Origin: Octopus vulgaris
Lineage: Eukaryota
DNA: 64,000 nt
Direction: 5' to 3'
Assembly: GCA_951406725.2 (NCBI GenBank)
Contig: OX597820.1
Coordinates: 112,778,001-112,842,000, forward strand
The position numbers and the translations under genes were made by a program. Numbering within the stretch: the first letter of the stretch is position 1; each line of letters opens with the position of its first letter. Positions 3,266-63,922 of the stretch are shown piece by piece. Below the pieces are notes generated by a model, which was not told the origin of the DNA, made no database searches, and worked only from the letters and a program-made list of their open reading frames with translations.

Positions 3266-3943
3266 ACTGGCTGTTGTTACCAACACAAAGCACTCAAGTG
3301 TGAAACAGAAAAATTACCAACTAAATGTTACATGTGGACCAGAGTTAGAATTTCTGATCTTTGAGACATTTGACCTACATAGCAATCATTCATCCAGATC
3401 CTATAACTCACTCTAAACCGTATATGCTTTCTTAGACTATCAAAGAACAACTAAAGTTCAAAATGAAGCATTAAAAAACTTAACCTCCACTTATTCATTC
3501 ATAATCTACCAGAGAAGGAAGTTGTAAGAATGCTAAACGGGCATTATTACTCTTCTTTTTCTTTCACCATCTCTCTCACCCCAGACATATCTTCTTTACC
3601 TTTTCTATCTTTTGCATCGTTTAGCCACCGAACTGTGGCAGCATCATGAAGGGTTTCGTCAAAAACCCTTTGAGGTACTTGCACTTATTCTGTCAGTCTG
3701 TTTTGCCTAACTGCTAAGTTATAGGGAGGTAAACAAACATGTCAAGCAGTGGAGAGGGGGGGGGCAAACAAAGATACACACACATATGTTTATGTATATA
3801 TGTGTGTGTGTATGTATACATACATATATATATATATAAAATATGAATTAGAGATAAAACCACTATTATGCAACTCAAACAGTGATAGACATAAACCAAT
3901 ACATAAATAACAAATAATATAAATATAATTAATATAATATATA

Positions 3944-3990
<47 letters not shown>

Positions 3991-4122
3991 GTCTATCACT
4001 GTTTGGGTTGCATAATAGTGGTTTTATCTCTAATTCATATTTTCTATTTTATATATTTATACTGTGAAATTTGATTCAATACTAAATTGAATTTTTCCCT
4101 GTTAGTTTGGAGTTATACTCCC

Positions 4123-4166
<44 letters not shown>

Positions 4167-16905: not shown

Positions 16906-17439
16906 AAAATGTATTCCTTTTCTTTGCTAGTTTCAGCTTAAGAACTGTTATCATGCTGAGGTGCCACTGTATGATGAGTTTCTGTACAGATTCCATCTCT
17001 AATGACAAGATATTGGTTATCCCAAGTCTCCCAGTAGAAGGCACTTGTTGAAGGTGCTACTGAGAGGGATTATAACTGGAATCGCATGGTTCTGTGTAGT
17101 TGTGAAGTGAGCTCCTTAATCTCCTAGATATGCTATCAAATAGATATCACTAATTATAGTGCTTTGTCCTGTTTTGGAACCCTATATCCTTAACCTAGAC
17201 AAAATACACATTGAAGAAACTACTTCCTTCTCAGAGGTAACAAATGTGTCAAATGTACTGAGTCTTTACAACACAACAGATTATAATTATTTTATCACAG
17301 ACTATTACTTCCAACAACAGAAAGGGTTTTCCTAGCAATGAAAAATATATCTCCAGTAAACATGATTCTTTTTATCTGATGTCTTTAATCCTTTAGCATT
17401 CACATTATTCTGTCAAAAGTAATGCTTATTTATTCATAT

Positions 17440-17579
17440 TACGGAGATGTACTTGCATAGCAAGTGACCTGATCTGAGATCGTGTGCTGGAACGAAAACA
17501 GTTTCAGCATGGAAGGTGTTTATAAGCCATTTAAGAAACACACAAAAACCATTAGATTCACTTCAGCATTTAAATTTAA
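17440..17579 (-). mobile_element. Truncated second copy of the G3-C8 hammerhead element (3' part only)
   Basis: Reverse-complement homolog of about 48544-48682 (tacggagatgtacttgcatagcaagtga...). Confidence 0.85.
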
Positions 17580-20157: not shown

Positions 20158-21304
20158 ATCTCCCTTAAATTATACCTGGCAATCTTAAAGAAAACTGAAG
20201 TATACACAATGAGATCTTGGGACATGTCTGAAGTGGAAAAAGAAACAACATGGTGTGGTCATGGTTGGAGCATTATAGTGTTGTCCCGGAGCTAAACAAT
20301 AGCTGCAGTAGTTAACATATATTTTCTATCTTAATGTAGATTCAACACTGCATTTGTCCTTATATTTTAATCTTTCAAGTCCGAAACCACTTCTGAATTA
20401 ATTTTTTCCTTTTACCATTTATTCCAACATAGATATTTGCCAACACCAATTCCTATTCTACTCAGGGTACATCATCCACCCACAATATATACACATTAGT
20501 AGAGTCATCTTTCCTGTATATATTTATATACCCTTTTGATACTCTGTTGCTTTCTTCACTTGCACTTAATTCCTCAATATTTTCCACAAAGAATATGTTC
20601 TCAAATAAAAAACCATATTCTTTGTGGAAAATAGCGATTTGACGTCTATATCTAGCATGTTGACCGTCCACTTTTAATTGTCAGTCCTTTAAATTTTGTA
20701 TATATATACACACACACACAAATATATATATATATATAATTTGCATCTGTTTGCTGCTTATGCTGACAAAAATATGCAATATGGTAGCTTTCCAAACATC
20801 TAATCCAGTGTCACCTCAAGTTTTTAAGTCCAAGGTTTGTACATCTAGTCTGGTGCATTGCTAATCAGAGATACCCCTTAATGTTGATTTCACCAGAACC
20901 TGCAAGGGCCATGACCACAGCCCTTCCTCCATACCAACCCAGTGATATCATCCACATCACTGTGAACCTTTTCTTTGTAAAAGTATAGTAAACACACACA
21001 CTGGCTTCTGTCCACCAAATCCACTCCCAAGGTCTGGGTTTGGCCTAGGGCTGTTGTAGAAATCATTATGGGAAGTGAACTACTCAACTACACAACCATA
21101 AATGCCAATATTAATATGGGATGTGGAGTGAGCCAGTATCTAGATGACAATTGTATTTACAGAATTTTTCTCCGTTTCAACTCCAGAAGCTCATCTCCTT
21201 ATTACATGCTGGTCTTATTAATCCTATTCAGTTTAATCTAGAAACAGTATTTTGGTTTCTATACTCTATCCTTTTTCTTCAAATGTAAGTTATGCACATA
21301 TCAT

Positions 21305-21422
21305 TTATATACCGTATCACGTTGAAAGCACCGGTTCTCGTCTGATCACCGAAGTTAAGCAACGTCGAGCCTAGTCAGTACTTAGATGGGTGACCGCATG
21401 GGAAACCTAGGTGCAGTAAGCA
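21305..21422 (+). pseudogene. 5S rRNA-derived sequence forming the head of a composite SINE
   Basis: atcacgttgaaagcaccggttctcgtctgatcaccgaagttaagcaacgtcgagcctagtcagtacttagatgggtgaccgcatgggaaacctaggtgcagtaagc is near full-length 5S with A/IE/C boxes; no oligo-T terminator follows. Confidence 0.92.
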
Positions 21423-30910: not shown

Positions 30911-31296
30911 GGATCTTTTCGCTTTGACCGGCAGATTTTTAAAATAATTTCTTTGTAACTATACACTTTTAAACTTCATATACTGGTAGTGTGTTACATA
31001 AAACATCTTTTTCTCTTGGCTTTATTGAAAAAATTCTGTAGTTTGTAAGCTATTTGTTGTTTCATTTCTTGCATTTGGGCAGAAATTGTATTCACCTCAA
31101 TAGACGTCATTGATTGGTTGAAATTGCCGAAATGCAAGAAATTAAACAACAAATAGCTTACAAACTACAGAGTTTTCTCAAGAGAGCCAAGAGAAAAAGA
31201 TGTTTTATAAACACATTCTACCTGTATATGAAGCTTAAAAGGGTTTAGTTACAAAGAAATTATTTTAAAAATCTGCCGGTCAAAGCGAAAAGTTCT
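30911..31296. mobile_element. Foldback MITE with about 170-bp TIRs and an 8-bp TSD
   Basis: ggatcttttcgctttgaccggcag... and ...ctgccggtcaaagcgaaaagttct; gaagagtt is duplicated at 30903-30910 and 31297-31304. Confidence 0.9.
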
Positions 31297-36570: not shown

Positions 36571-36716
36571 TATATATATATATATATATACATATATATA
36601 TAAATATATTCCAAAGTAAGCACATAAAAGTGAATTAAGGTGGCAAAAAATAGTACTCGAATGCTAGAGGTAGAGTAATATGCTTTATTAATAAAGCTGC
36701 AAAAACATCACAAAAA

Positions 36717-36754
36717 CTGTTACTCAGAGTTTCCCGTTCACATTCATCGGACAG
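36717..36754 (-). ncRNA. Hammerhead-like motif, U4C variant, in a partially palindromic element (about 36610-36817)
   Basis: Minus strand: ctgt-CCGATGA-atgtgaacgg-GAAA-ctctgag-T-A-acag (stem II weak); an internally deleted inverted copy starts at 36778. Confidence 0.6.
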
Positions 36755-36921
36755 ATTGGGTTGATTCTCAACCAAAACTGTCCTATGAACGGGGCAGTTT
36801 TATTAATAAAGTATATATAATATATATAGTTAATCCAAACATGAAAACACAAAGAGAAAACACAACAACATGAGGACGTGGAACAAGTATAGTGTTATTA
36901 AACGCTCAGGAAAGAAGGAGA

Positions 36922-36956
36922 ATTTAACGTTTCGAGCGGAGCTCTTCATCAGAAAC
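36922..36956 (-). ncRNA. Minimal type-I hammerhead ribozyme with canonical core (element about 36829-37040)
   Basis: Minus strand: gttt-CTGATGA-a-gagc(tcc)gctc-GAAA-cg-T-T-aaat; palindromic AACGTT stem III. Confidence 0.8.
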
Positions 36957-37318
36957 ATAGAAAAAGAAAAGATCCAAGGAAGGGAAGACGGAGGAAACAA
37001 AACGCCAACGGTACACATGCAGTCACATTTTGAATCACTTATATATATATAAAGAAAGAGAGAGAGAGAGATGGAGATAGAGAAAGACAGACAGAGACAG
37101 AGTTAACAACTTTCCCTGTATATCTTTGAGCTGCAGAAGAAAGATTACTGATCCAGTTTGTGTTGTGGTGGTCTACATTTACAGCTGTTGCTACACAGAC
37201 CACTCTTGAAAATAAACACTTTACATACGCCCTCTCTAAGCATCTTTCACATGCATGCATACATGGATATAAAAATTCTTACATACATATGCTTGTATGT
37301 ATGAGTATATATGTATGC

Positions 37319-44832: not shown

Positions 44833-44876
<44 letters not shown>

Positions 44877-44938
44877 GAGTGTATTTTTACCTTTATCCAT
44901 CATTTTTTGCTAAAATGTCTTATTGACGAGTTTCGTTT

Positions 44939-45031
44939 TTTTACTTCCCTGAAGAGAAGATTGCATTGTTTTATACCATTTATTCTTTTGAATAAAATCA
45001 GTGAAATCTTCAAAACGTGTCGAAAGTAAAA
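44939..45031 (+). ncRNA. Type-I hammerhead ribozyme with canonical core, CpG-decayed (element about 44871-45063, inside (TA)n)
   Basis: ttttacttcc-CTGAAGA-gaagatt...aatcttc-aAAA-cgtg-T-C-gaaagtaaaa; 10-bp stem I with one mismatch and 7-bp stem II. Confidence 0.8.
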
Positions 45032-45060
45032 GTATTTGATTTATAACTGCGTTAAACTCC

Positions 45061-45124
<64 letters not shown>

Positions 45125-45559: not shown

Positions 45560-45850
45560 ACAGCATATCAGTTGTTATTATGCAGAGATTTGCATAAATG
45601 TTTACATGTGAAAACGAATGTGAATAGTGTAATTGGAATATGTGGAAGATTAAAGTGGATGTGTTATGATGCTCTGAATGGTAGTAAAGCATTTAAGAGT
45701 AATGTCACTGGTAAGAAGTTCGTTATTAATAATGGATTATCTCTTAATTGTAGGTCAGTTAATGACATTTATTTAGTACAGTGTATAGAATGTGAGAATT
45801 TGGTACACAATATATGGGAATACAGGTATTACATCAACATAGGCAAATAT
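45560..45850 (+). pseudogene. Penelope-like (Neptune-type) ORF remnant: Cys-rich linker and GIY-YIG endonuclease N-terminus
   Basis: CGRLKWMC...FKSNVTGKKFVIN...NCRSVNDIYLVQCIEC, then in a shifted frame GTQYMG; fits the CxSxNVIYxxxCxxC...YVG pattern. Confidence 0.75.
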
Positions 45851-46013
45851 ATAAACTGGAGCAGGGTCTTTGTATCAATCTACCTACATATACATATATA
45901 GATATATATATCTATATAGATATATATAGTTGAAATTTATAGAGAAATAAAAGACGAAGACAAGTACATAAACAACAAACAGGTGTATTAGTTTGATGGG
46001 AAGGTTAGAAAGT

Positions 46014-48371: not shown

Positions 48372-48681
48372 AAGCCATTTAAGAAACACACAAAAGCCGT
48401 TCGATTCACTTCAACATTTAAGTTTAATTTGTCAAAATATTTTCGTCGCTATAAGACCGCGACCTGTTCACTGACAAAAATCCGTGCTGCATTTGTCAGT
48501 GAACAGGTCGCGGTCTTATAGCGACGAAAATATTTTGACAAATTAAACTTAAATGTTGAAGTGAATCGAACGGCTTTTGTGTGTTTCTTAAATGGCTTAC
48601 AAACACCTTCCACGCTGCAATTGTTTTTGTTCCAGCACACGATCTCAGATCAAATCACTTGCTATGCAAGTACATCTCCGT
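48372..48681 (+). mobile_element. Small palindromic hammerhead-carrying retroelement inserted in the Tc1 transposase, 13-bp TSD
   Basis: Perfect 108-bp arms (48371-48478 and 48492-48599), 13-nt loop, unique tail of about 80 bp; aattcttttttct is duplicated at 48359-48371 and 48682-48694. Confidence 0.92.
48491..48543 (+). ncRNA. Minimal hammerhead motif with G3-C8 core swap (mirror copy on minus strand, 48428-48478)
   Basis: atttgtca-GTGAACA-g-gtcgc(ggtcttata)gcgac-GAAA-atat-T-T-tgacaaat. Confidence 0.8.
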
Positions 48682-62791: not shown

Positions 62792-63169
62792 TGTGTGTGT
62801 AACCAATATCTAACCAAGGAAGTTGAACGCGTTAATAGCAAATTATGAATGCACAGCATACTGTATATATATAGATTTAAAACTATTTAATGACATGGAA
62901 CGAGATTTTACCATGACTAATAGTAATGGTGTTGGTGATGGTGATGGTGGTGTTCGTGGTGAAGGTCCTGTAATTGTATCACATTTATATAAAAATAGTA
63001 ATAAAAGTGACGTCGAAGTTTCGGGTGGCTAAGCCATCCTCGGACGATGCAATGATGGCTTAACTGGCCGGAACTGCCAAGTTCCTGTCAATATTCTTCT
63101 TCTTAATACATGTGTGTGTGTGTGTATGTGGCAAATACGTCTTCCTCGATCAACACATAGATAAATATT

Positions 63170-63380: not shown

Positions 63381-63421
63381 AACATATAAATATACTTGTT
63401 TCAGTCATTAGACTGCGGCCA

Positions 63422-63535
63422 TAATGTGACCGCGTGTGTACCGTTGGCGATTTTTTTCCCTCCGTCTTCCCTTCTCTGGATCTTTCCTTTTCCTATTTTT
63501 CTGACGAAGATCTCTTTGTGTTTTCATGTTTGGAT

Positions 63536-63540
<5 letters not shown>
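63422..63540 (+). mobile_element. Internally deleted copy of the 36829-37040 hammerhead element
   Basis: Reverse-complement homolog of that element; keeps ttt-CTGACGA-aga (63501) but has lost stems II and III. Confidence 0.8.
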
Positions 63541-63565
<25 letters not shown>

Positions 63566-63573
<8 letters not shown>

Positions 63574-63837
63574 ATGTTACATTACTCGGTAGTCATAGAT
63601 AAAACTCTGAGTTTCAGATGCCAAGTGGAAATCCACAACACCATCTCTTCGGTTATCTGGCTATTTCTGGAAATAGCCAGATAACCGAAGAGATGGTGTT
63701 GTGGATTTCCACTTCGGCATCTGAAACTCAGAGTTTTATCTTGACTACCGAGTAATGTAACATATTGTATAGATAAATTTCCTCTATTTACATAATATTG
63801 AGGTCTCTTTCTTTCTTTTGTTATCTTACCGTTTTAT

Positions 63838-63840
<3 letters not shown>
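63566..63840 (+). mobile_element. Palindromic hammerhead-carrying element within (TA)n
   Basis: Near-perfect arms of about 102 bp (63566-63667 and 63670-63771), 2-nt loop, unique tail of about 70 bp. Confidence 0.88.
63679..63741 (+). ncRNA. Hammerhead-like motif, U4C variant (mirror copy on minus strand, about 63597-63658)
   Basis: agataa-CCGAAGA-gatg..gtgg(attt)ccac..catc-t-GAAA-ctcagag-T-T-ttatct. Confidence 0.75.

Positions 63841-63922
<82 letters not shown>

Follow-up and report, generated by a model that had tools for sequence, protein, structure and literature searches.

A tailed palindrome between two TA tracts

The window, by which we mean the entire 64,000-nucleotide stretch of Octopus vulgaris DNA analysed here, is AT-rich and laden with microsatellites, TA runs of at least 12 nt accounting for 5.2% of it. 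Using blastn and alignment, we found that positions 63566-63666 are the reverse complement of positions 63671-63771, giving two head-to-head arms of 101 bp each around a 4-nt spacer, CTGG (63667-63670), in which a C and a G face each other around TG and which differs from the upstream sequence of the repeat family to which the arms belong. The arms are distinguished by two single-base indels and no substitutions; given that the right arm matches a contig from sequencing run X19 with no differences, both indels are assigned to the left arm. The direct arm (63671-63771, plus strand), which resembles a 5'-truncated pLTR segment, is followed by a 68-bp tail (63772-63839, plus strand) that is present on the right side only, has no ATG-led frame reading through to its end, and stops at the usual 3' end of the family, where TA comes next in other copies. 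The inverted arm (63566-63666, minus strand) is untailed. To the left lies a TA tract of 30 nt (63540-63569), the target microsatellite, whose last four bases overlap the end of the arm; to the right lies one of 44 nt (63840-63883), which continues into a (TATG)n repeat. No target duplication around 63566-63839 is readable inside these flanking TA runs. With such arms, a one-sided tail and TA runs on both sides, the locus bears out the hairpin-plus-tail architecture that the original prediction had assigned to 63566-63840. A blastn search found no second copy of the family within the window, and the upstream motif of the family was not found elsewhere in it.

The left TA run is also the 3' end of an internally deleted 3' stub of another hammerhead-bearing repeat family (63420-63540, plus strand; blastn and alignment), from which it follows that the palindrome was inserted in the TA tract of this older stub. 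The stub matches 37032-36939 at 86% and 36857-36828 at 100% (blastn), and its alignment with that copy (36828-37032) reveals an internal deletion of 85 nt. A minimal hammerhead motif is present in the 36952 copy of the host family.

A companion element with the same layout occupies positions 48372-48681. It has arms of approximately 107 bp, a 13-nt spacer, an 82-bp one-sided tail and a perfect target duplication of 13 bp, and it interrupts a Tc1-type transposase remnant, with Pfam matches to HTH_SB and DDE_3 on either side. Its hammerhead shows a natural G3-C8 swap and an 8-bp stem I. The two elements had been described as unrelated in sequence, and indeed blastn finds no match between them. 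The tail of the companion has an open frame from an ATG at approximately 48592 to its end. A second copy of the companion family, non-palindromic, 5'-truncated, 91.5% identical and ending at the same 3' point, is seen at 17438-17579 on the minus strand.

A hammerhead-like motif in each arm

Scanning both strands of the window with a strict descriptor (C3 core, stem I of at least 5 bp, stem II of at least 3 bp), we obtained exactly two motifs, one per arm. The plus-strand motif (63679-63741) is of type I, with a predicted cut after 63735; its mirror (63597-63658, minus strand) has a predicted cut after 63603. The plus-strand motif comprises a 6-bp stem I (AGATAA/TTATCT, 63679-84/63736-41), the core CCGAAGA (63685-63691) with C at core position 4 (U4C), a stem II region (63692-63721; GATG/CATC plus further pairs), an extra pyrimidine (T63722) followed by GAAA (63723-26), and a self-complementary stem III region, AAACTCAGAGTTT. 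The stems and the CCGAAGA core had been predicted correctly, but the extra T63722 before G12 had been missed.

The motif is present beyond chance: the strict descriptor matched none of 3000 dinucleotide shuffles of arm plus tail and none of 30 shuffles of the window, and a looser match was seen 3 times in 30 shuffles. The fold energy of the ribozyme alone was no better than that of shuffles (z -1.05). Rfam returned no hammerhead at 63668-63840 up to E=10, the three matches there being of other kinds, and across the whole window none appeared among the matches listed (150 of 180). The Rfam microRNA matches that overlie the palindrome are sub-threshold hairpin artefacts, and we rejected a microRNA identity. 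Compared with the canonical core C3 U4 G5 A6 N7 G8 A9, the motif has C in place of U4, and the canonical adjacency of stem II to G12 A13 A14 is interrupted by the inserted pyrimidine; the remaining consensus bases (G12 A13 A14, A15.1-U16.1 and H17) are all present. We therefore classify the motif, by its sequence, as a putative non-canonical hammerhead with two departures from the consensus.

In the isolated motif, the computed pairing probabilities are 0.22-0.78 for stem I, 0.94-0.95 for stem II and 0.30-0.37 for stem III. For arm plus tail, the stem I value falls to 0.001 or less, and when the entire element is folded as one transcript all three stems drop to 0.000, against a hairpin of -179 kcal/mol. 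It follows that the two ribozymes cannot act as a pair in this copy. Since the ribozymes that the original prediction called "back-to-back" lie on opposite strands, a dimer within one transcript is also rejected. The stem III region has a self-duplex energy of -11 kcal/mol, as a head-to-tail dimer would need.

By eye, the core (63685-63690) is complementary to 63712-63717 in the stem II region. This pairing could give an alternative fold that hides the core, and a common family variant at 63713 would weaken it.

Copies of the family in public sequencing runs

Parts of the stretch were found in 20 runs from 11 studies with eight organism labels. We compared 63660-63845 with the contigs of four of the 24 listed runs (the DNA runs X1, X3 and X4, and X19, which may be RNA) and obtained at least 9468, at least 4291, 2060 and 1 matching contigs, respectively, where the X1 and X3 counts cover approximately 76% and 80% of those runs. 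Arm plus tail therefore belong to an abundant repeat. The centre of the palindrome, by contrast, is nearly uncovered: summed depth over 63660-66, relative to that over 63674-80, is 2.6e-4 (X1), 3.3e-4 (X3) and 8e-5 (X4), where the X4 value represents one contig touching one base and summed depth is no copy number. This contrast between centre and arm indicates that few copies, or this one alone, have the palindrome centre, and no contig piece among those listed spans it.

Among the contigs listed, loose ends continue upstream of 63671 in 18 contigs of X1, 12 of X3 and one of X19, and upstream of 63676 in 35 contigs of X3 and 28 of X4. These upstream ends are T-rich and non-palindromic, those before 63671 ending in TTTTC (X1, X3 and X19), and the upstream sequence available amounts to 30 letters of T-rich consensus. 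The single X19 contig (257 nt) equals 63671-63836 with no differences and continues for 91 nt upstream; it may share its source with the DNA analysed here. At the other end, loose ends behind 63835 are TA runs in 61 (X1), 37 (X3) and 32 (X4) of the listed contigs, and TA-joined 3' ends were seen in three runs of two organism labels. Two listed joints connect opposite strands, 63676/63782 (X1, X3 and X4) and 63679/63771 (X4), each with no overlapping letters; a further X4 joint, of a kind not stated, connects 63732 to 63671 with TTTC between. The upstream continuation, the TA 3' ends and the differing joints together imply that the family is longer than this copy, that its 3' end is fixed and that its inversion points vary. 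From sequence comparison, we also consider the family to be recently active.

These observations bear on two other explanations of the palindrome. A MITE or foldback DNA transposon that has long terminal inverted repeats and contains the ribozyme motif by accident would account for an element that is short, palindromic, non-coding, abundant and flanked by TA dinucleotides. We regard it as highly improbable and as largely refuted, given that the contig comparison revealed neither family-wide terminal inverted repeats nor a fixed internal structure. The inverted repeat does not include the tail, deep coverage of the arm contrasts with almost none at the centre, relatives extend further upstream and end in (TA)n, junctions differ and the hammerhead-like motif exceeds chance. 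A MITE with family-wide terminal inverted repeats and a decayed core, which the original prediction had named as the finding that would overturn it, did not materialise. The palindrome might also be a sequencing or assembly artefact, namely a fold-back chimera, as both differences between the arms are single-base indels in one arm, neither of them a listed family variant, and this centre is spanned by none of the listed contig pieces. We find this scarcely credible: the mirror ends after 101 bp and the flanks differ, the similarly built companion is bounded by a perfect 13-bp duplication, and joints between opposite strands of this family were found in separate, independent runs.

Outside these runs, a metagenome scan with a 17-nt pattern, which is too short, gave 119 loci, where the longest blastn match to arm plus tail was 30 nt; in view of such short matches, all 119 were set aside as chance. 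A pattern scan of viral contigs gave no matches to the family.

Variation of the hammerhead-like motif across copies

Between 63671 and 63698, C4 included, no variants at 1% or above are listed in three runs, a stretch in which under-calling near the match edge is possible. Between 63699 and 63741, variants at 4% or above fall on 4 of 13 unpaired positions and on 0 of 30 paired or core positions (p 0.006); at a threshold of 1%, the counts are 4 of 13 and 3 of 30 (p 0.11). Two of the three paired or core variants preserve pairing and the third is G12A at 1.1-1.5%. Avoidance of paired and core positions is only suggestive, because the variants have a common ancestry and the structure was itself derived from the sequence analysed here. 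The extra base before G12 is T in this copy and reads C in 28-35% of depth. A bulge at 63722 is thereby favoured over an A-U pair, and pairing of A9 with T63722 was rejected on the same ground.

Judging from these copies, U4C appears to be the standard form of this animal repeat family. Two decayed hammerhead-like motifs of other families on the minus strand (36600-36750 and 62990-63055) also have C at position 4 (at 36750 and 63043, respectively), so that U4C is not peculiar to the element at 63566-63840. The stem III region of the first of these decayed motifs resembles that of the element.

Probable assignment to Penelope-like elements

Endonuclease-bearing Penelope-like elements (PLEs) encode a telomerase-like reverse transcriptase with a GIY-YIG endonuclease; their full copies are partial tandems (pLTR-ORF-pLTR), and their target duplications vary in length. 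Both domains were sought in the window with Pfam, and neither was found among 150 of 328 candidate frames. At 45620-45853, a frame with spaced cysteines has no Pfam match, no homologue at E 0.01 among longer proteins and atlas matches at noise level; we take it to resemble the zinc-finger/GIY-YIG start of PLEs. Three short motifs were sought in File S1 of PMC8557442, and none was present.

The structure of the insertion is more informative. Three papers, by Craig et al. 2021 (PMC8557442), by Arkhipova et al. 2013 (PMC3846280) and PMC8969392, report that PLE insertions often carry an inverted 5'-truncated copy together with a one-sided tail of 30-40 bp, and that their microsatellite bias hides target duplications. 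The locus at 63566-63839 is similar to the insertions described in the first two of these papers in its head-to-head inverted 5'-truncated copy, its one-sided tail, its AT-rich microsatellite target with an unreadable duplication and its hammerhead near the 3' end; it differs in that only a pLTR stub is present and in that the tail measures 68 bp rather than 30-40 bp. The 82-bp tail of the companion is likewise about twice the published length. Copies of the family, moreover, derive from a longer unit, whose fixed 3' end they keep while lacking its 5' part, and the hammerhead-like motif, despite its variant core, has a short self-complementary helix III. By these five structural features, 63566-63839 would belong with endonuclease-bearing PLE insertions. 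We consider it very probable that the locus is a young, 5'-truncated insertion of the pLTR end, with its hammerhead, from an abundant PLE family whose targets are TA microsatellites, and that it is accompanied by an inverted copy of itself. Within PLEs, the Neptune clade, which is marked by a CX2-5CxxC linker before the endonuclease, would fit a TA target combined with a hammerhead. The proposal in the original prediction that two unrelated elements with a common layout share an integration mechanism is supported, but that layout is the PLE signature already published in PMC8557442 and PMC3846280.

The motif at 63679-63741 also invites comparison with known ribozymes. Like described PLE hammerheads, it is of type I, with a G10.1-C11.1 closing pair and a short helix III whose self-complementarity suits dimers; the described cases also include motifs on opposite strands separated by 100-700 bp. 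It differs in having C rather than U at position 4 and a full 6-bp stem I, and its extra base lies 3' of stem II, whereas in described PLE hammerheads the extra base lies between 9 and 10.1. Hammerhead dimers and variants of PLEs are reportedly treated by Lunse et al., where U4C may be described. In a literature search outside which most subscription papers fell, including Lunse et al. and the supplements of PMC4209133, we found no pairing of U4C with Penelope. A self-complementary stem III is typical of PLE hammerheads (PMC4209133). The same core change is found in a natural viroid hammerhead cited by Perreault et al. 2011 (PMC3088659), who report it as much less active in vitro but sufficient in vivo; here, by contrast, it is apparently the family standard in an animal repeat and is joined by a second departure.

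A related explanation is that, instead of being a stub left by a coding PLE, the element is a non-autonomous hammerhead repeat without an ORF, comparable to animal retrozymes and making use of PLE proteins. No coding sequence is linked to the family, for which the upstream sequence in hand is a 30-letter T-rich consensus, and bioRxiv 10.64898/2026.07.22.740005 argues that retrozymes derive from PLE pLTRs. The animal non-LTR retrozymes of that preprint share with our element a non-coding sequence, a type I hammerhead and a proposed origin in PLE pLTRs, but their units are arranged head to tail in tandem, while those at 63566-63839 are head to head. The X4 joint from 63732 to 63671 could be head to tail. 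Given that there is no tandem at 63566-63839, that no joint among the six listed is of the kind that goes back, and that the family extends at least 91 nt upstream in the X19 contig, we think the retrozyme explanation unlikely.

The locus is thus an ordinary, well-preserved example of a described retroelement footprint. Its main use lies in annotation, where palindromes of this kind can readily be taken for MITEs or microRNA hairpins. The doubly variant ribozyme (U4C plus an insertion before G12) would matter more if it were proven active.

Formation of the inverted arms

The arms begin 65 nt upstream of the first base after the predicted cut, which argues for an uncleaved template. A 5' end defined by cleavage was rejected for this reason. 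We also rejected a 5' end defined by a splice acceptor, the junctions at 63671, 63676 and 63679 not falling right after nearby AG pairs.

A precedent for copying uncleaved RNA comes from the anole. In that species, both strands of the target are cut and then extended by the PLE protein, which initiates reverse transcription at two internal positions of the RNA, one at each end of the tail, and uses uncleaved RNA (Frangieh et al. 2024, PMC11167929). Extending this scheme, we hypothesize that a PLE reverse transcriptase-endonuclease would have cut both strands of an AT-rich target, that reverse transcription would have started at two internal sites on the RNA, near 63771 for the untailed arm and near 63836-63839 for the tailed one, that both cDNAs would have run towards the RNA 5' end through the uncleaved ribozyme and stopped at 63671, and that the two would have been joined head to head. 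Trapped within the 101-bp hairpin, the ribozyme would simply be carried along here; any activity that it has in the parent element would require dimer formation or assistance from protein. The Poseidon element of Anolis carolinensis, PAc, resembles our locus in having two 3' ends a tail apart, an AT-rich target and a ribozyme left intact in the inserted copy (PMC11167929). It differs in that its ribozyme overlaps the start of an ORF, a feature without counterpart in the tail at 63772-63839, and the formation of inverted arms is not treated in that study. Within the PLE explanation, we give two joined cDNAs an about even chance of being the correct route, noting that its twin-cDNA step is an extrapolation from a single in vitro study on a different PLE clade.

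Alternatively, the mirror arm of the same PLE element may have arisen by fold-back, with a single cDNA halting a short way upstream of the ribozyme, folding back and serving as its own template. The two arms share their stop position and do not differ at any of the 13 listed family variants that fall within the arm; a tiny T-run/A-run inverted repeat is present in the family sequence where they stop, and the 13-nt spacer of the companion element could be a loop of this kind. The CTGG spacer, however, does not match the upstream sequence of the family, and the two other opposite-strand joints listed are unequal, with no overlapping letters. Nor does fold-back alone explain a copy that stops 68 nt short of the 3' end, which two starts of reverse transcription do (PMC11167929). 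We therefore see fold-back as a possible but less favoured route within the PLE explanation, and assign a small share of the likelihood to routes other than these two. Fold-back priming of cDNA near the ribozyme, the mechanism suggested in the original prediction, matches a self-priming hypothesis put forward in the Discussion section of PMC3846280; the present data do not single it out.

A more specific version of the two-cDNA route concerns the junction itself, which could mark the transcription start as well as the mode of priming. The base before A63671 is C in the family and G in both arms here, an observation from one junction, and the non-family G that starts both arms is possibly a copied RNA cap. 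The T-C-A context at A63671, which we presume to be initiator-like, is kept in both upstream variants seen. An extra 5' G from a copied cap has been reported for LINE-1-type reverse transcription (PMC4038843), and accounts of D. virilis Penelope in PMC2377424 and PMC6765202 place its transcription start inside its pLTR. We envisage that the PLE protein would bind its own capped RNA through the pLTR at the 5' end and prime two cDNAs from the two cut target strands at two internal start sites, that both would run off at the cap, each gaining a cap-templated C, seen as G63670 and its mirror at 63667, and that they would then be joined head to head. Two cDNAs running off one capped end would explain the equal arm ends without fold-back. 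Against this, a facing C and G are expected by chance about once in 16 cases and are seen at a single junction; the other long-arm ends are displaced downstream by 5 and 8 nt, and one joint reaches 4 nt further upstream. The comparison is also made with the upstream sequence of the family, from which the true parent of this copy may differ. On balance we hold the capped run-off to be doubtful. We found no prior proposal of it for PLE palindromes, and the term "twin priming" was absent from the five PLE papers listed in a search that left most subscription literature outside.

If the run-off proposal were true, short symmetric PLE palindromes would be complete run-off products rather than random truncations, their centres would map promoters, and the formation of inverted pLTRs would become testable from genome sequence alone. 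PMC8557442 describes the origin of inverted pLTRs as still unexplained, and for that reason the locus would matter more if centres across copies were to cluster at one base with a cap-like extra G.

Other repeats in the window

Several further repeats were observed. At 44870-45062, a TA-flanked stub holds a hammerhead-like motif with its core at 44949, a 7-bp stem II with a long loop, and A for G12. At 3820-4125, between TA runs, two inverted segments of approximately 60 bp are separated by an AT-rich spacer and extended on one side by approximately 75 bp; no hammerhead was found there. The symmetric 384-bp palindrome at 30912-31295, with 87% identity between its arms and no hammerhead found, is more like a foldback element or MITE and provides a useful contrast. 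Finally, Rfam identifies a dispersed 5S rRNA-like copy at 21303-21422, which scores 90 bits against a gathering score of 38.
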